Shown: positions 1,095-21,447 of the stretch, piece by piece
How the letters are laid out: each line of letters begins with the position of its first letter
Numbering within the stretch: position 1 is the first letter of the stretch
From: a virus
Length of the DNA: 64,000 nt
Direction: 5' to 3' (one strand)
Virus record (IMG/VR): IMGVR_UViG_3300049259_000288
Location: 12,961-76,960 of that record
Notes under the pieces: model-generated
Databases searched by the model: none
Seen by the model: only the letters and a program-made list of their open reading frames with translations
What the model was told of the DNA's origin: nothing
Position numbers and translations under genes: made by a program

Positions 1095-1366
1095 TGGTCC
1101 GCGTCGAGACCGTTGGCTCGGTGTGGCTGATCGACGAGACCGAGGGTCGCTACTGCCGCTTCCCGCTCGAGGAGAAGCCGCGCGAGCGGGCCGAGTGGGG
1201 CGACGAGCGCGCCGGTGACCTGCAGGACCTCGTATGGCACGACTTCGCCGGTCAGTGGCGCATCGACGACTACACCGGCCGGCTCTTCATCGAGACGCGT
1301 TGGAGCGAGGACGAGGGCTGGTGGGTGGTCACGGCCCCCCGTGCCCGCGTGGTCAGCGAGACGTGA
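1094..1366 (+). CDS. hypothetical protein
   Basis: TGATG coupling; Trp-rich. Confidence 0.6.
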   Translation: MVRVETVGSVWLIDETEGRYCRFPLEEKPRERAEWGDERAGDLQDLVWHDFAGQWRIDDYTGRLFIETRWSEDEGWWVVTAPRARVVSET

Positions 1367-2085
1367 GCGAGGACCTCTGGGCGCAGCGCGACGACCCGCG
1401 CGTGCGCGAGCGGCTGATCCTGCAGTACCAGCCGCTCGTCGAGCGTGTCGCCGGCGGCATGTCGACCGGCCTGCCGGCGAGCGTCGATCGAGCCGACCTC
1501 GTCGCCGACGGCATCTTCGGTCTGATCGAGGCGGTCGAGTCCTTCGATCCCTCCGTCGGCGCGCAGTTCGAGTCCTTCGCGATGCGTCGCATCCGTGGCG
1601 CCATCCTGGATGCGCTGCGCTCGATCGACTGGGCTCCCCGGACGATCAGGATGAACGCGCGCCAGCTCGAGCGCGTGCGCAGCGACCTGCAGGCCGAGCT
1701 CAATCGCACGCCGACCGAGGCCGAGATCGGCGCCGAGATGGGCATGAGCGAGGAGTCCGTGGCGCGCCTGATGGGCGAGGTCAACGTGGCTCAGGTGGGT
1801 CGCTTCGACGCCGAACTCGAGCAGTGGCACGGCTACGTGTCCCGCAGCGACAACCCCGGCGCTCCGGAGTTCCGGCTGTTCGACCCCGAGCGCCTGGCCG
1901 ACCTGCTGGCCGACGCCATCGTCGAGCTCACGGGCCGGGAGCGCGTGGTCTTCACGCTGTACTACGTGGAGGAGGTCACCTTCAAGGAGATCGGCGAGCT
2001 CCTCGGCGTGTCGAAGGTGCGCGTCAGCCAGCTGCGCGACGACGCCATGCTGCGCGTCAAGGAACACCTGGCGAAGGCGTCATGA
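1363..2085 (+). CDS. RNA polymerase sigma factor, FliA/WhiG (sigma-28) family
   Basis: RERLILQYQPLV...DLVADGIFGLIEAVESFDP...FESFAMRRIRGAILDALRSIDWAPR; region 4 LTGRERVVFTLYYVEEVTFKEIGELLGVSKVRVSQL. Confidence 0.95.
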   Translation: MSEDLWAQRDDPRVRERLILQYQPLVERVAGGMSTGLPASVDRADLVADGIFGLIEAVESFDPSVGAQFESFAMRRIRGAILDALRSIDWAPRTIRMNARQLERVRSDLQAELNRTPTEAEIGAEMGMSEESVARLMGEVNVAQVGRFDAELEQWHGYVSRSDNPGAPEFRLFDPERLADLLADAIVELTGRERVVFTLYYVEEVTFKEIGELLGVSKVRVSQLRDDAMLRVKEHLAKAS

Positions 2086-2391: not shown

Positions 2392-2940
2392 CTACGCGAC
2401 GGCGCCGGCGACGTTGTCGATGGGGAGGTACGGGGCCCACGTCGGGTTGGCCTCGCGGATCCCCATGAGCAACCAGTACGTGCCCGTCGGGACGTAGGGC
2501 TTGAACGCGAGAACCCAGTCCATCTCGGCCAGCGTGTGAGCGGCCTTCCGCGCGTTGCACGGACGGCACGCGGCCACGACGTTGGTCCAGGTGTGCCGGC
2601 CACCCCGCGACCGCGGGTGAACATGGTCGACGGTGGTGCCGCGCCGCGGCGCCCACTGCCGTTCCCCGCGGTGGTTCTCGGGGATGCAGTAGGCGCACCG
2701 GTGCTCGTCACGCCGCAGGACCGCGGCGTTCGACAGCGCGATGCGCGCGGTGTACGGCACCTGCACGTACTTCCGCAGGCGGATCACCTCGGGCACGGGC
2801 ACCGAGGCGCGTGCTGAGTGGTAGGCGTCGTCACCGGCCTCGAGCACCTCGGCCTTCTCGGCCATGACGAGCACGACGGCCCGGCGGGTGTCGATGATCC
2901 GAAGCGGGGTGTAGTCAGCATTGATCAGCAGGGCCGCCAT
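2392..2940 (-). CDS. HNH endonuclease (actinobacterial McrA-like)
   Basis: LLINADYTPL...VLRRDEHRCAYC...TVDHVHPRSRGG.HTWTNVVAACRPCNARK. Confidence 0.92.
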   Translation of the reverse strand: MAALLINADYTPLRIIDTRRAVVLVMAEKAEVLEAGDDAYHSARASVPVPEVIRLRKYVQVPYTARIALSNAAVLRRDEHRCAYCIPENHRGERQWAPRRGTTVDHVHPRSRGGRHTWTNVVAACRPCNARKAAHTLAEMDWVLAFKPYVPTGTYWLLMGIREANPTWAPYLPIDNVAGAVA

Positions 2941-2956
2941 CTGCGTCTCCTTTCCT

Positions 2957-3688
2957 TCATCGTTGGCGCGCCCTTGTTTGCGCATCCAGTCGTTGTTGTC
3001 GTTGGACCGGGTCGGCCCAAACCTTCCGCTGTGCCTCGGCCATGCGCGCGCGGGTCTCCTCGCTCACGACCCGCGCGGTGTTCATCTGCGCGATGGCTTC
3101 CCGCTGCGTCTCGGTGCGCTCGTAGCGCCCGACGCCAGGCGAGGGTCCGTTCCTGGCGTAGGTTGCACGCAGGGACGCAGCGATCTTGGACCGGGTCTCA
3201 TCTGAGAGCCGTCGCCCGGTGTTCGACCTGGCGATCTTCGCGATGACTTCGGGCGCTCGTGGGCGGTCTTTGAGCGTCGCGCGTATCTTTTCGCGAACCA
3301 CCGTGGGCATGGGCCCCTTGGGCTTGCCCCTTTGCCAGGCTGACATCTTCGCCTTTGTTGACACGGAGTGGTGATGGCCTGTCAGACCTTCGCCGCCATC
3401 CGTGTGATTCGTGAGTCGGGCTACAGCGCGGTAGTGCTGGATCCAGTGGCGTTCGCGAGCGGCCCAGTCCTCGCGACCGTCTACGACCTCCACGAGCTGG
3501 ATGATCGGCGGCGAGTTGTCTGCGAGACATCTTCTGATCCACCGATCACGATGGGTGGAGGTTCGACCGGATCGCGCAGACCAAAGGTGGTAGGCGAGCC
3601 GGTCGCCCAGTGGCTTGACGGTCTTTCCGACGTACCGGATTTCGTTGGAACGCTGGTCGATGAGCACATAGATGGACGTGGGTTGCAC
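2957..3688 (-). CDS. GIY-YIG homing endonuclease with NUMOD3 repeats
   Basis: IYVLID...IRYVGKT...RL.YH...E..WI..Y...LTN.TDGGEG; HSVSTKAKMS and LSDETRSKIA repeats. Confidence 0.88.
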   Translation of the reverse strand: MQPTSIYVLIDQRSNEIRYVGKTVKPLGDRLAYHLWSARSGRTSTHRDRWIRRCLADNSPPIIQLVEVVDGREDWAARERHWIQHYRAVARLTNHTDGGEGLTGHHHSVSTKAKMSAWQRGKPKGPMPTVVREKIRATLKDRPRAPEVIAKIARSNTGRRLSDETRSKIAASLRATYARNGPSPGVGRYERTETQREAIAQMNTARVVSEETRARMAEAQRKVWADPVQRQQRLDAQTRARQR

Positions 3689-4479: not shown

Positions 4480-4553
4480 TGGTGGACCCGACGGGAGTTG
4501 AACCCGCAATCGTCTCCTTGCAGGGGAGGTGCTAGCCGTTCAGCTTCGAGCCC
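4480..4553 (-). tRNA. tRNA-Ala(TGC), C33
   Basis: G3-U70 identity pair; loop CCTGCAA; ACCA. Confidence 0.88.
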
Positions 4554-4557
4554 GAGA

Positions 4558-4646
4558 TGGTTGGTGCGGCTGCCCACGCTCGTCAGCGCGAAGCATCACG
4601 GCAGGGGCTCTCCCGATGCGCTCGGGCGCCTTTCTCAGCCGCACCA
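4558..4646 (-). ncRNA. CCA-ended non-cloverleaf RNA with 11-bp terminal stem
   Basis: TGGTGCGGCTG/CAGCCGCACCA followed by ACCA; two internal hairpins; no T-loop or anticodon arm. Confidence 0.55.
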
Positions 4647-4719: not shown

Positions 4720-4721
4720 GT

Positions 4722-4780
4722 AGAACGTGCTCGGCCCGGCTACGGATCCCTTGGGATTCCGACCGGGCCGAGACGCTTCT
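4722..4780 (-). ncRNA. long imperfect hairpin between tRNAs
   Basis: CTCGGCCCGG/CCGGGCCGAG 10-bp core, extended at both ends. Confidence 0.4.
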
Positions 4781-4788
4781 CTCGCAAA

Positions 4789-6949: not shown

Positions 6950-7021
6950 CGTCCCAGAGAGGGGTCGAACCTCCAACCTACGGCTCCGTAGACCGTCGCT
7001 CTTCCATTGAGCTACCGGGAC
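6950..7021 (-). tRNA. tRNA-Arg(ACG)
   Basis: ACGGT-CTACGGA-GCCGT. Confidence 0.92.
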
Positions 7022-7122
7022 TCGCGGCGGGCGCTCTGCCACAGAGCTTCGCCGTCCTCGGATGCTGCGCGCAGCATCGTCATCGAACGGCGGCAGGAAT
7101 TGAACCTGCGCCTCCCGCCTCG
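7022..7122 (-). ncRNA. circularly permuted tRNA mimic (YrlA-like domain order)
   Basis: The 3' half (GCGGG, T-arm GCAGG-TTCAATT-CCTGC, CGCCGTT) precedes the 5' half (GACGGCG, D-arm GCTC..GAGC, CCCGC); the acceptor stem is capped by a hairpin. Confidence 0.8.
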
Positions 7123-7198
7123 CGCGGCTGACGGGATTTGAACCCGCGATCTCTTCCTTGACAGGGAAGTGAGGACGACCAGACTCCTCCACAGCTGC
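7123..7198 (-). tRNA. tRNA-Asp(GTC)
   Basis: CTTCC-CTGTCAA-GGAAG. Confidence 0.9.
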
Positions 7199-7203
7199 TT
7201 GGG

Positions 7204-7278
7204 TGCGCGATCAGGGACTCGAACCCTGCCTATGTCGGTTTAAGAGACCGCTGGTCCAGCCATCTGACCAAATCGCGC
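7204..7278 (-). tRNA. tRNA-Lys(CTT)
   Basis: CGGT-CTCTTAA-ACCG. Confidence 0.88.
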
Positions 7279-7283
7279 GTGAG

Positions 7284-7424
7284 GTGCGTGGAGTGGGCGC
7301 GGCGTGTGTGCCTGTTCTTCGATCGGTTTGGAACCCGGCCAGGCCCTCTGTCACGAGAGCCCACTTCCGTCGGTGACACGAACCGGGTGCGTTCTCGCAC
7401 GCCTCCATGTCGATCTCCACGCAC
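7284..7424 (-). ncRNA. ~140-nt rod-like RNA with potential pseudoknot
   Basis: 10-bp terminal stem GTGCGTGGAG/CTCCACGCAC; GGCGTG/CACGCC; loop GTGACA is complementary to upstream TGTCAC. Confidence 0.6.
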
Positions 7425-7427
7425 GAG

Positions 7428-7507
7428 TGGGCCCGGAGGGAATCGAACCCCCTGTGTCATTCGACGTCTGGGTTACAACCAGGTGCGCCCCATGGCGCGT
7501 CGGACCC
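7428..7507 (-). tRNA. tRNA-Tyr(GTA)
   Basis: CTGG-TTGTAAC-CCAG; variable arm GTC-GAAT-GAC. Confidence 0.85.
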
Positions 7508-7540
7508 GTGTGGCGAGGGTTGGCGCCCTCGCCCTATCTC

Positions 7541-7564
7541 GGCGTCTATGCGATTGTCAACGAG
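7541..7564. repeat. right arm of long-range inverted repeat; boxA-like on the minus strand
   Basis: Minus strand GCTCGTTGACAATCGCATAGACGCC pairs with the 2204-2226 arm. Confidence 0.85.
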
Positions 7565-7576
7565 CTGGTACTCAAG

Positions 7577-7648
7577 CAGGGGCGGGAGGGATCGAACCTC
7601 CGTTGCCGGTTTTGGAGACCGGAGTCCGTTCCACTGGACCACGCCCCC
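7577..7648 (-). tRNA. tRNA-Trp(CCA)
   Basis: CCGGT-CTCCAAA-ACCGG. Confidence 0.92.
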
Positions 7649-7652
7649 TGGG

Positions 7653-7907
7653 TGTTGCTGCGGTGAAAGGCAGCCGAGCAGCGGCGCCGGGTATCCCGAC
7701 GGCTGATCCGCTTCACTGGCTTGCCCTTCGATGTCCTGCGGTCTGTCGACCTACAGGTTCGACGGCGTTACCAGCTAACGCGGGTCCCCGGCTTATTCGC
7801 CGGGATGCGCTTGGCTTCGTACGTCACGCACGAAGGAAGCGCCTCGGGCGCGCCGGCGGACAGAGCGAATCGCTCTGTCCTCGCATCGGCGTGTGCCCGG
7901 TACAACA
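7653..7907 (-). ncRNA. ornate ~255-nt multibranched leader RNA of the tRNA operon
   Basis: Terminal TGTTG/CAACA stem, nested GCCGA/TCGGC, GCCGG/CCGGC, CCCGA/TCGGG, and at least five hairpins. Confidence 0.65.
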
Positions 7908-7915
7908 TCGACGCC

Positions 7916-7946
7916 ATCATGCCCACGTCTCGCGCCGCGCAGTCAA
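7916..7946 (-). promoter_or_regulatory. putative SigA-type promoter of the tRNA operon
   Basis: TTGACT-N19-CATGAT; predicted start coincides with the 5' end of the structured RNA. Confidence 0.5.
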
Positions 7947-7970
7947 TGAATTTCTCGCGATGATGTTCGT

Positions 7971-8156
7971 ATGAGGCTCATCGACCGGGCGACCGGCCAG
8001 CCGCCGGTGCTCCGGAACGGCTACTCCTTCTCCATCGAGACCATGCTCATCGAGGGCACGGAAGTCCCCGACGGCGTCGTCGGCGAGGACGTCGCGACCG
8101 CTCAGTCCTTGCGGACCTCCACGTACTTCACCTCGTACCGTGCACCAGGTGGGTGA
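7971..8156 (+). CDS. hypothetical protein
   Basis: Divergent from the tRNA operon; GC3-biased codons. Confidence 0.5.
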   Translation: MRLIDRATGQPPVLRNGYSFSIETMLIEGTEVPDGVVGEDVATAQSLRTSTYFTSYRAPGG

Positions 8157-8556
8157 CGTCGACCAGAAGGCGGAAGCCCGCGAGACGGTCGACGCGTTGC
8201 GCGGGCGGAGCGACTACGAGCTGGGGCTGCTCTGCACGGAGATCCTGCAGTCGCGCGCGCCGCGGCCGATCGAGAACCGCAAGGGACGCCGGTGCCGGTG
8301 GTGTGGCAACGGGATCGCGCCGGACGCGCCGGCGTACCGCATGTTCTGTCGTGACGTCTGCATCCAGGCGAAGCAGGACGCCATGGTGCGCGCCAACTGC
8401 GAGCACCTCGATTGGGTCGAGGCGCGCGACGCCTATGGCGAGTTCGAGCGGTGCGCGCGCTGCGGCATGGAGCGCACCGTCGAGGACCGTGTCATGGCCA
8501 TGCTGATCGCGCTCTTCCGGCCCATGGTCATCGTGCCGGTGGGCGAGTACCTCTAG
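8149..8556 (+). CDS. hypothetical Zn-finger protein
   Basis: CRWC...FCRDVC, CEH...CARC. Confidence 0.6.
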   Translation: MGDVDQKAEARETVDALRGRSDYELGLLCTEILQSRAPRPIENRKGRRCRWCGNGIAPDAPAYRMFCRDVCIQAKQDAMVRANCEHLDWVEARDAYGEFERCARCGMERTVEDRVMAMLIALFRPMVIVPVGEYL

Positions 8557-8566
8557 CCTTCCGGCC

Positions 8567-9040
8567 ATGCTGGATGCTGCGTACCTCGACCGTCGCCTCG
8601 GCGAGCGGCTCACCTTCCCGACCTTCCTCGCGTCGATCGGCGAGCCCCTCGAGGGCGACCGACTGCCCGACGGCGAGTGGACCTGGGTGACACTCGGTGG
8701 CTACGTGGAGCGGGCCCATGGCGCTATCGCGCCGCCGGCGGATCAGGTCGGCTTCCACGTCATGGAGTTCGTCACCGAGCTTGGCGATGCGGAGAACGTC
8801 GATCGGCTCATCGACCTCGCCGGCCAGCAGATCGACCGCGCCGTGCTCCTGCGGCTCAGCGCGCTCATCGCCGCGGGCTCGGGCTACCTCGTCGAGAACA
8901 TGGACGTCATGTACTCGATCGGGGCGCGCGAGACGAAGGTGTGGGAGGAGCCGATGAACTTCGAGTCGTCGGTCCTGCACTGGATGTGCCGGACCCCGGT
9001 GCGCCTGGCGATTGGGATGCCAGCGGGCGTTCCCGCCTGA
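8567..9040 (+). CDS. hypothetical protein
   Basis: ORF with phage-typical codon bias. Confidence 0.65.
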   Translation: MLDAAYLDRRLGERLTFPTFLASIGEPLEGDRLPDGEWTWVTLGGYVERAHGAIAPPADQVGFHVMEFVTELGDAENVDRLIDLAGQQIDRAVLLRLSALIAAGSGYLVENMDVMYSIGARETKVWEEPMNFESSVLHWMCRTPVRLAIGMPAGVPA

Positions 9041-9149: not shown

Positions 9150-9392
9150 ATGGCCGAGCGAGTGCGTGCGAAGTTCTACGTGGCCGAGATCGGCAAGACG
9201 ACCTACGGCGGCAAGGTCGTGCTGCGCGCGGTGTCGCGCGGTGAGGACAACAAGCAGTGGGCGAACGCGACGCCCAGCGGCGAGATCACGCTGTCCATCC
9301 GCAACGAGCTGGCGCTCGAGGTGTTCGACGTGAACGACGAGTTCTACGTCGACTTCATCAAGGCGCCCAAGGGCGAAGAGGGGATGGGCTGA
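9150..9392 (+). CDS. conserved small phage protein
   Basis: GAGGAGG RBS; VRAKF...N..WA.ATPSG.I.L.I.N...F...EFYVDF. Confidence 0.75.
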   Translation: MAERVRAKFYVAEIGKTTYGGKVVLRAVSRGEDNKQWANATPSGEITLSIRNELALEVFDVNDEFYVDFIKAPKGEEGMG

Positions 9393-10144
9393 TGGCCTAC
9401 CCCGCCATCAACTGCAGGTTCATCACTCCCACCGGCTGGATCCGGCGCGTCACCGTCCACTGGAAGCGCCCCGAGGGGTGCCGGGTCGAGGCGGCGTACT
9501 GCAACGAGCGCCGCAACGTCGACGACGGACCGGGCATCCCGGCCGACGATGGGTGGCAGACCCAGCTGCCGGCGCCGTGGACGCCAGGCATGTGCGAGGA
9601 CTGCGCCAAGCCCTACGACGGCTCCGAGGCCCACGCCACGAGCATGGTCCAGATGCGGTGGAGCACCGAGAGCGGGCGGCCAGAGCCCGGCGACCTGCTC
9701 TACATCACCGAGGACATCCGCGAGATCGAGCGGATGATCCACGTCAACGGTCACACCCCTCACGAGGGGTGCGACCAGTGCGTGCCGGGGGCCGCGGGCC
9801 CGATGGCGTGCGGTGACCTGTGCTACGCCCGGTCAGCCGGCGAACCGGAGGATGCTCCGCAGCGGATCGCGACAGCTGGCTGGCACAACTGCGATGGCCG
9901 TCACCTGGTGTGCATCCTGCCGAACGGACACCCCTGGGACGTCGACGGCCGGGCCAACAACTGCACGATGCCGAACGAGCGGCTGCACCGCTGCTGGGTG
10001 CGACACGGCAGCCCGGAGAACCTGACCGTGCACGTCTCGAAGAACGGACCGTCCTGCGCCGCTGGCGCGGGGTCGATCCTCTCCGGCGACTACCACGGCT
10101 TCCTGCAGATGGCCAACGGGCGATCGACGCTGACCGCCGGATAG
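9392..10144 (+). CDS. Cys/His-rich hypothetical metal-binding protein
   Basis: WDVDGRANNC...HRCWVRHG...SCAAGAGSI...YHGFL. Confidence 0.7.
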   Translation: MAYPAINCRFITPTGWIRRVTVHWKRPEGCRVEAAYCNERRNVDDGPGIPADDGWQTQLPAPWTPGMCEDCAKPYDGSEAHATSMVQMRWSTESGRPEPGDLLYITEDIREIERMIHVNGHTPHEGCDQCVPGAAGPMACGDLCYARSAGEPEDAPQRIATAGWHNCDGRHLVCILPNGHPWDVDGRANNCTMPNERLHRCWVRHGSPENLTVHVSKNGPSCAAGAGSILSGDYHGFLQMANGRSTLTAG

Positions 10145-20511: not shown

Positions 20512-21447
20512 ATGACCACGGTGACCAAGGTCGACCCCTGGACCAACAACGAGGAGCGAGCCAAGGCTCGCGCCATCGTCGAGGCCGCCAACCAGGAGGC
20601 GCGCGACCGGTGGGAAGATGACGACTTCCACCGGGAGTTCGCGGCGGTGATGACCACCAACATCTTCGAGGGCTTCCGGCACGAGAACGTGCTCTCGCTG
20701 ATGACCCAGGTGGAGACGGTCGGGCTCAACGACCGCATCACCATCCGCGAGGTGCGCGGCCTCCGGGTGTTCTGGGTCTCGCTGGGTGGCTACATCGAGC
20801 AGAGCACCCTGCGTGCTCGCGTGATGGAGCTCACCAAGGACCAGGTGGGCTTCCACCTGTCCGAGAACGAGGACAAGATGACGGCGAACTTCGTCGAGTC
20901 CTCGGGCGAGATCGAGGACCTGGCCATCCAGACGATGGATGCCGCCATGCAGGTCCGCCTGATCTCGATGTTCCAGGTGGCGATCCCCGACACCTCGCCG
21001 TACTACATCGAGGGCGCGGGGCTGTCGCTGGCGGCGCTCGACACCGCCCTCACCGAGGTCGAGGACGAGACCGAGCTCGACCTGCCGGCCATCATCGGTC
21101 GTGCGCCGATGGTCAACCAGATCTTCAACGATCTGCTGGCCAGCAACAACTTCACGCCGGAGACCAACGAGCAGCTGCTCCGCACCGGCGTCATCGGCAT
21201 CTACAAGGGTGCCCGCGTCATCCGGCTCCGCAACTTCAAGAACGACATCGGGACGCCCTACTTCCCGAACAACGAGCTCTACGTCGTCGGACGTGACGCC
21301 TCGAAGTTCGGCTTCTGGGGCGGCCTGACCACGAAGGAGTGGGTGGAGCAGGGCGGCTGGTACTGGCACCTCATGGGTCGCCGGCTGGCCGGTGGGGCGC
21401 TCTACCGCCCCGAGCGGGTGCGCCGCATCGTCGACACCTCGCTCTGA
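20512..21447 (+). CDS. major capsid protein
   Basis: 311 aa; GVIGIYKGARVI and ALYRPERVRRI pattern; strong codon bias; followed by a hairpin. Confidence 0.75.
   Translation: MTTVTKVDPWTNNEERAKARAIVEAANQEARDRWEDDDFHREFAAVMTTNIFEGFRHENVLSLMTQVETVGLNDRITIREVRGLRVFWVSLGGYIEQSTLRARVMELTKDQVGFHLSENEDKMTANFVESSGEIEDLAIQTMDAAMQVRLISMFQVAIPDTSPYYIEGAGLSLAALDTALTEVEDETELDLPAIIGRAPMVNQIFNDLLASNNFTPETNEQLLRTGVIGIYKGARVIRLRNFKNDIGTPYFPNNELYVVGRDASKFGFWGGLTTKEWVEQGGWYWHLMGRRLAGGALYRPERVRRIVDTSL

Follow-up and report, generated by a model that had tools for sequence, protein, structure and literature searches.

A predicted 255-nucleotide structured element at the head of a large tRNA array in an uncultured soil phage

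Background

Does the stretch that leads from a promoter-like site into a large phage tRNA array give an RNA in its own right, or is it GC-rich spacer DNA that happens to fold? This question is raised by a stretch of an uncultured soil phage in which an initial annotation, made from the letters alone, described an elaborate and unclassified phage non-coding RNA at positions 7653-7907. In this work we present a computational analysis of that stretch, referred to below as the element, covering its borders, its predicted fold, its relatives and the explanations that compete for it.

Folded RNAs with a protecting or modifying role occur at the 5′ end of several long untranslated transcripts, among them the rRNA-operon leaders with their boxA, the put RNAs of phage HK022 and the stabiliser hairpins of the ompA leader. 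Large phage tRNA arrays, for their part, repeatedly carry non-tRNA RNAs (T4 species 1 and 2, GOLLD, ROOL). T4 species 1 (rnaC, 139 nt) and species 2 (rnaD, 119 nt) are small stable non-tRNA RNAs that form part of a tRNA precursor of about 1.75 kb and are excised from it by the tRNA-processing machinery (PMC2330249). GOLLD and ROOL are found in phages and prophages, often beside tRNA islands, and are possibly co-transcribed with the tRNAs (PMC5737381, PMC12286853).

Results

Genomic position and borders of the element

The window, by which we mean the whole analysed stretch of 64,000 nucleotides, corresponds to bases 12961-76960 of a 76,960-bp IMG/VR virus record (approximately 73% complete, 68% GC) of a high-GC soil phage. 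The phage origin assumed in the initial annotation is borne out by this record and by the capsid gene, sigma factor and HNH endonuclease encoded on the contig; the nearest phage relative in GenBank is an uncultured mangrove-soil virus with 49% capsid identity. ARAGORN places 37 tRNA genes in the window, every one of them on the minus strand, which together span 7648 to 2227. An additional tRNA, absent from the ARAGORN list, is recognized by Rfam at 4483-4553 (minus strand, 46.2 bits), so the array comprises at least 38 tRNA genes. The sigma-70-family factor, with regions 2, 3 and 4, is encoded at 1234-2085 (plus strand), just past the 3′ end of the array, and the HNH endonuclease gene (2392-2985, minus strand) is located within it, as a homing endonuclease, segB, is in the T4 tRNA cluster.

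On the minus strand, the element is the stretch immediately 5′ of tRNA-Trp(CCA) (7576-7648; ARAGORN and Rfam, 58.1 bits), the first gene of the array, which has no encoded 3′ CCA. It is on the same strand as the tRNA genes and contiguous with them. Plus-strand genes that show the phage's codon bias begin at 7971, to the right of the element; as the tRNAs are on the minus strand, the element is placed in a divergent intergenic region. A scan of 7400-8200 revealed no terminator-like site.

At the boundary with tRNA-Trp, the 3′ strand of the predicted closing helix ends in ...CAACA (7657-7653) and is followed by CCCA (7652-7649, minus strand, read directly), which abuts G+1 of the tRNA without any spacer. 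The element fills a slot constructed as the tRNA slots are: 22 of the 37 array tRNAs have an encoded CCA, with the next gene within 1-5 nt. Owing to this arrangement, an RNase P cut at tRNA-Trp would release a leader ending in ...CAACA-CCCA-3′OH with its ends paired, and the predicted 3′ end would consist of a helix, one base and CCA, as at the acceptor end of a tRNA. The CCA at this junction was spotted after the fact and has about a 2% chance of occurring by composition.

Two further non-tRNA units closed by a helix are present in the array. One of them (4554-4646, minus strand, 93 nt) is flanked by tRNA-Ala(GGC) and the tRNA that only Rfam recognizes. An 11-bp helix joins its ends, ACCA and a UCUC spacer come next, and the fold, with z -2.4, is no cloverleaf. 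The other, of 148 nt, fills the gap between tRNA-Tyr and tRNA-Lys (7279-7426, minus strand), where it is closed by the 10-bp helix GUGCGUGGAG/CUCCACGCAC and has a z of only -2.2. Together they suggest that the operon yields processed non-tRNA RNAs.

At the opposite border, the initial annotation let the RNA start just after a promoter-like site. The hexamers TTGACT (7946-7941) and CATGAT (7921-7916) are indeed there, read directly on the minus strand (7916-7946) and unique in the window in this arrangement, and transcription beginning about 7 nt beyond them would have its start at approximately 7909-7907. They are separated by 19 nt, and because of this spacer and a non-T first base the pair fails a sigma-70 consensus scan, which detected no sigma-70-like site in 7400-8200. 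Related contigs share the -10 hexamer and, at a likeness of at least 80%, not the -35, the alignments ending at 7927. We therefore speak only of a weak promoter candidate. A TTGACA within ACCAGCUCGUUGACAAUCGC, in the spacer between tRNA-Trp and tRNA-Tyr (7541-7569, minus strand), is a possible -35 hexamer of an internal promoter; if it is one, leader and tRNA-Trp could make up a separate short unit.

Stability and architecture of the predicted RNA

Read as minus-strand RNA, the element (65% GC) has a minimum free energy (MFE) of -140.5 kcal/mol, compared with -103.2 ± 4.7 kcal/mol for 200 dinucleotide shuffles (z -7.86), none of which folds as well. When energy was regressed on GC content for 2,558 windows of 255 nt, taken from both strands of the entire contig (76,960 bp), no window had a lower residual than the element, which is 4.2 sd under the regression line. 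The plus strand of 7653-7907 folds less well (z -4.58). The fold contains 93 pairs (65 G-C, 21 A-U and 7 G·U), and due to the seven G·U pairs the same helices are 9.3 kcal/mol costlier on the plus strand, an asymmetry consistent with transcription in the same sense as the tRNAs. These values agree with the originally described structured RNA of about 255 nt at the head of a tRNA operon. The remaining spacers of the array are far less structured (z +1 to -3), with the exception of the 69-nt spacer at 4720-4788 (minus strand) between tRNA-Met and tRNA-Ala, a single bulged hairpin of -40.5 kcal/mol with z -5.5. A window within the capsid gene (20701-20955, plus strand) reaches -136.9 kcal/mol and, at 4.1 sd under the same regression line, nearly equals the element, so stability alone proves no function.

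In what follows, RNA position i stands for window position 7908 - i, and all parts are on the minus strand unless stated otherwise. The MFE structure is multi-branched, with five branch points, and describes a closed multi-hairpin RNA composed of a 5′ domain, four hairpins, a 3′ domain and paired ends; pair probabilities are 0.85-1.0 for every helix but the closing one. The predicted 5′ domain (RNA 8-63, 7845-7900; probabilities 0.85-0.99) stacks helices 9-13/59-63, 17-21/53-57 and 24-25/51-52 with the 10-bp hairpin 28-37/41-50. Its apical hairpin, GGACAGAGCG-AUU-CGCUCUGUCC (7880-7858), lies in a perfect 23-bp palindrome, GGACAGAGCGA-A-TCGCTCTGTCC (7858-7880; inverted repeat I3, 100% complementary), which is also a possible operator. 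Then follow the hairpin at RNA 66-101 (7807-7842), with 15 bp, one G·U and a UGA loop (0.98), the hairpin CCCGGC-GAAUAA-GCCGGG at RNA 104-121 (7787-7804; 1.0), the hairpin GCGUUA/UAACGC at RNA 127-143 (7765-7781; 0.94) and that at RNA 151-173 (7735-7757; 0.98). The 3′ domain (RNA 179-243, 7665-7729; 0.88-0.97) is a long bulged arm capped by hairpin 207-223. Finally, the 3′ strand of the closing helix (7653-7661) has RNA 1-6 (7902-7907) as its partner, with a pair probability of only 0.58 and the alternatives 1-6/247-252 or 1-5/251-255. The hairpin loops are plain (AUU, UGA, AUA); no GNRA, T-loop or other tertiary motif was found in the element, and no pseudoknot is predicted for it. The segment UCGAACCU (RNA 146-153) is complementary to the T-arm of tRNA-Trp (inverted repeat I10), a likeness discarded as meaningful because one related contig (X2 contig 14) both deletes and alters the segment.

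All hairpins named in the initial annotation, UUCGUGCG/CGUACGAA included, are present on the minus strand of 7653-7907. Its proposal for the ends held for the pairing UGUUG/CAACA; the segments GGCA/UGCC and GCCGA/UCGGC occur in the sequence but do not pair with one another in the MFE structure. The long-range rod that it assembled from these two, GCCGG/CCGGC and CCCGAGGC/GCCGUCGGG is disfavoured, as the forced fold has -133.2 kcal/mol, 7.3 kcal/mol worse than the MFE, in which the same segments pair locally. Moreover, the GCCGG/CCGGC helix is broken by G221A (window position 7687) in four of four related contigs, a change that in the MFE model converts a G·U into an A-U pair.

Known RNA families and coding capacity

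A search of the whole window with Rfam 15 at the gathering score returned tRNAs only. With permissive filters and E ≤ 10, applied to both strands of 7500-8100, no family matched within the element; the only matches were tRNA-Trp and Sr006, the latter outside the element (7947-8044, plus strand) and dismissed as noise at 25.6 bits, the gathering score being 100. This outcome excludes tmRNA, RNase P RNA, 6S RNA, GOLLD, ROOL, T-box and other riboswitch leaders, as well as the ribozyme and intron families. For tmRNA, no candidate was given by ARAGORN, no match by the Rfam tmRNA clan, and no T-loop is present in the element sequence. The multi-branched MFE also differs from the rod with a large central bubble typical of 6S RNA. 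The GOLLD and ROOL models remained unmatched at the gathering score and at E ≤ 10, and the element, at 255 nt, is set apart from ROOL, which has about 580 nt and contains pseudoknots. The earlier statements that the RNA is unclassified and shows no tmRNA, RNase P or intron hallmarks thus stand.

Two open frames could in principle give a small protein, one of 52 aa on the minus strand (7926-7768), the GC3 of which (0.81) speaks for it, and one of 80 aa on the plus strand (7721-7963). Their base composition (GC2 0.60, GC3 0.75-0.81) is nevertheless either beyond or on the margin of the values seen in the phage genes (GC3 0.82-0.95, GC2 ≤ 0.55), and neither has a Pfam match. In the minus-strand frame, the start of which would fall inside the promoter spacer, three of five substitutions hit codon position 1, and the plus-strand frame is cut by 1-nt indels in the relatives. 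Such single-base indels, found at 7713, 7720, 7745, 7759, 7760 and 7765 in related contigs, argue against coding, which we consider unlikely; a protein product has hardly any probability in our estimation.

Relatives of the element

Logan contigs from four soil runs, all of them DNA contigs, were aligned to 7000-8600; the runs listed for the stretch included no RNA run. Apart from the probable source sample, three soil-metagenome studies contain contigs with copies 93-99% identical to the element: X2 contig 14 (7659-7927, 16 substitutions and three gaps), X2 contig 12 (7641-7803, 19 substitutions and four gaps), X3 contig 21 (7655-7927, eight substitutions and one gap) and X4 contig 28 (7671-7821, two substitutions). 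The element is no better conserved than the neighbouring tRNAs, the tRNA-Tyr region differing in the relatives at 0 of 92 and 5 of 171 positions, which is equal or better conservation.

In contigs of two studies similarity is lost at 7927/7928, between the -10 and -35 hexamers. This point resembles a mosaic breakpoint, and one contig runs on for 1,154 unrelated bases. In X2 contig 12 and X3 contig 21 the tRNA-Trp body (7570-7654) is replaced by 91-100 other letters with both flanks aligned, resembling a swapped tRNA cassette. As similarity resumes at tRNA-Tyr, the related contigs represent close, mosaic strains.

At greater distance nothing comparable was found. A blastn search of 50,697 phage records with 7600-8000 gave no match, and the element produced only chance matches of 12-29 nt in 41 related IMG/VR records, i.e. 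records of the same capsid family with capsids at most 53% identical. The covariance model R1, built from the element (255 positions, 93 pairs) and run over these 41 records and its own record, matched only the element itself, which points to shallow conservation. The capsid-alignment search had returned 80 loci, the best 53% identical; closer capsid relatives, with 95%, 76% and 65% identity, were located on Logan contigs. Searches with neighbouring proteins (9257-10144 and 8507-9040) gave no related loci, and those with the sigma factor only relatives of 29-32% identity. Pattern scans yielded no match to the 23-nt hairpin in viral contigs and none to a 30-nt pattern of the 5′ domain in genome contigs. 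With a free loop, the 23-nt hairpin was met at five loci in metagenome contigs of 50-59% GC, which we rejected as chance copies of the hairpin alone. As a place to look for an analogous leader, the start of a distant relative's 45-tRNA array (59% GC) was set aside, that phage being too remote for comparison. Within isolated phages, the 41 relatives and the metagenome and genome pattern scans, no homologue below about 93% identity was detected, and we regard the element as a credible but unproven phage ncRNA or leader, apparently confined to one lineage.

Substitutions and the predicted fold

Differences listed for the four contigs were mapped onto the MFE structure; a further 24 substitutions and four indels are outside this set, and the counts below refer to the listed differences. 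One clean compensatory pair is found: in X2 contigs 12 and 14 alike, U159-A166 has become C-G through 7749 A>G and 7742 T>C. In X2 contig 14, U71C together with C95G re-form a shifted pair in hairpin 66-101, the loop-closing pair of which is opened by G81A. Three wobble-compatible changes (G221A, G182A and A180G) keep their pairs by exchange of G·U and A-U. Pairs are lost through four changes, at positions 81, 145, 173 and 196, which are all helix ends; no helix interior is disrupted, and the remaining changes fall in loops and linkers; the loop of hairpin 104-121, for example, reads GAAUCA in four of four related contigs (7794 T>G).

For the reconstructed variants the folding energies range from -138 to -141.6 kcal/mol, and the consensus from RNAalifold has the same architecture. 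In two of them the 3′-half MFE switches to a long-range helix of 125-138 with 188-200 at the expense of hairpin 127-143, making this arm less certain. In a permutation of the listed differences of the four contigs, five pairs were broken against 7.7 ± 1.5 expected (P = 0.07). The pattern leans to structure preservation in a manner that is suggestive, not significant. As for the non-coding nature claimed initially, the indels against coding and the structure-leaning substitutions make it plausible, but the covariation does not reach significance.

The listed changes all lie within RNA 71-221, and the first 70 nt together with 20 nt upstream have none, so the 5′ domain is free of listed substitutions. 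In window terms, the 90 nt of 7838-7927 show no listed substitution, and 7687-7837 shows 15 substitutions and six indels. The invariant block could reflect constraint on an RNA, a promoter or operator acting at the DNA level, or recent recombination near the 7927 breakpoint.

Discussion

Sharing its strand with the 37 tRNAs, the element fills everything from the promoter-like site to tRNA-Trp, and the explanation that we prefer, with a probability of about one in two, is a non-coding leader which is co-transcribed with the tRNAs, folds autonomously and is released by RNase P. Leftward transcription would begin in the divergent intergenic region, at about 7908-7950, and the leader would fold alone into a compact unit of 5′ domain, four hairpins and 3′ domain with its ends paired. 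While processing the 5′ end of tRNA-Trp, RNase P would free it as a separate molecule, about 256-260 nt long, whose termini are paired and whose 3′ end reads ...CCCA-3′OH. In cis, the leader may shield the 5′ end of the 5.4-kb untranslated precursor from 5′-end-dependent RNases and may offer no unstructured site for Rho loading. These ideas of protection and Rho escape come from what is generally known of structured leaders. After release it could persist as a stable small RNA, in the manner of T4 species 1 and 2 derived from their tRNA precursor. Of this picture, the analysis shows the position, the strand preference, the exceptional predicted stability, the lack of a known family and the occurrence in several soil samples; transcription and its start, the release by RNase P, the stability of the RNA and any role in cis or trans are inferred.

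The working analogy for a cis role is provided by structured leaders of long untranslated transcripts, in which, too, a folded RNA stands at the very 5′ end of an operon with its 5′ end in a helix. The put RNAs (about 70 nt) and the stabiliser hairpins are, however, much smaller than the 255-nt element, and no boxA, put or other defining leader sequence was identified in 7653-7907. As regards position, the element is like the non-tRNA RNAs that phages co-transcribe with their tRNA clusters. With T4 species 1 and 2 it would share the status of a non-tRNA RNA of a phage tRNA cluster within the same primary transcript, here on the basis of predicted position, and rnaC folds well too (z -4.6). Unlike the element, which is at the 5′ end of its array, rnaC and rnaD are at the 3′ end of the T4 cluster; they have half its size, and rnaC contains a T-arm-like hairpin, CCGGGUUCGAAUCCCGG, that the element lacks. 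A search of the T4 tRNA/rnaC/rnaD region (NC_000866, 68000-76000) with the R1 model (cmsearch, filters off) gave only noise in short fragments, the best with 6.8 bits and an E-value of 0.2, and hence no similarity in sequence or structure. The comparison with GOLLD and ROOL, already drawn in the initial annotation, extends to the genomic position only. An elaborate multi-helix fold beside phage tRNAs, in our case a predicted one, is common to them, but GOLLD and ROOL measure >800 and roughly 580 nt, and the support that they have from covariation is not comparable to that of the element.

The GOLLD and ROOL precedent near phage tRNA islands (PMC5737381, PMC12286853), together with the lack of any known family match, the element's build as a unit of its own whose ends pair and which carries a CCA at the predicted RNase P site, and the second CCA-ended non-tRNA unit in the same array, speaks for a trans-acting phage ncRNA of a new class, which would use its acceptor-like ends and CCCA-3′, for instance, as a decoy or platform for a host factor that handles or targets tRNAs. 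We hold this for unlikely, as no significant covariation is seen, the element is confined to near-identical relatives, beyond its end there is no T-arm or tRNA-like module (ARAGORN and Rfam negative), and the junction CCA, noted post hoc, has its 2% chance by composition. Quite unlikely is also the fuller proposal of a new class of RNase P-released RNAs of about 260 nt, in which paired termini and N-CCA would mimic the tRNA acceptor end, the element being one of several "tRNA-slot" RNAs that act in trans on the host tRNA-handling or targeting machinery. A GOLLD- or ROOL-like role in trans, the likeness being one of context, is possible but unsupported.

Instead of the RNA, the DNA itself might be what matters: the block 7838-7927 with its palindrome would then be a promoter and operator for the divergent tRNA operon and plus-strand genes, and the remaining fold incidental. 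Perfect palindromes are of the kind bound by dimeric regulators, this one lies 28-50 nt past the putative start, between divergently oriented genes, and the block has no listed substitution, against 15 substitutions and six indels in 7687-7837. Yet the palindrome makes up only 23 of 255 nt and is compatible with an RNA role as well, the other helices hold G·U pairs that are mismatched on the opposite strand, making the fold strand-asymmetric, and the compensatory U-A to C-G change falls outside the block. We accordingly think such DNA-level control rather improbable. The palindrome was also considered as a repeated operator and this was rejected, the window having no second copy or half-sites beyond chance. 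Equally doubtful to us is that the element has no function at all and is 65% GC intergenic DNA which folds well by chance and is kept among very close strains. The 93-99% identity of the relatives, with tRNA-Tyr conserved equally or better, the covariation P of 0.07, the similar stability of a coding window in the capsid gene and the absence of a homologue in distant relatives speak for such a case. Against it weigh the z of -7.9 and first rank among 2,558 windows, the lower structure of the other array spacers (z +1 to -3, one exception), the restriction of breaks to helix ends along with two compensations, and the exact fit of the element between promoter-like site and tRNA, where it ends at the predicted RNase P site.

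Conclusions

The element combines a striking predicted structure with an unclassified and apparently lineage-restricted sequence, and the signs of structure preservation in it are weak but consistent. Transcription start and RNase P appear to define its two ends, and the same operon holds sibling units that end like a tRNA acceptor. Should it prove to be a neutral GC-rich spacer, it would serve as a caution that a stability of z -8 alone is no proof of an RNA gene. If real, it would be a small, high-GC soil-phage addition to the poorly understood non-tRNA RNAs of phage tRNA operons, of a size (255 nt) tractable for probing, RNase P assays and structure work, and it would allow a direct test between a cis role, i.e. 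5′ protection and Rho escape, and a role in trans.
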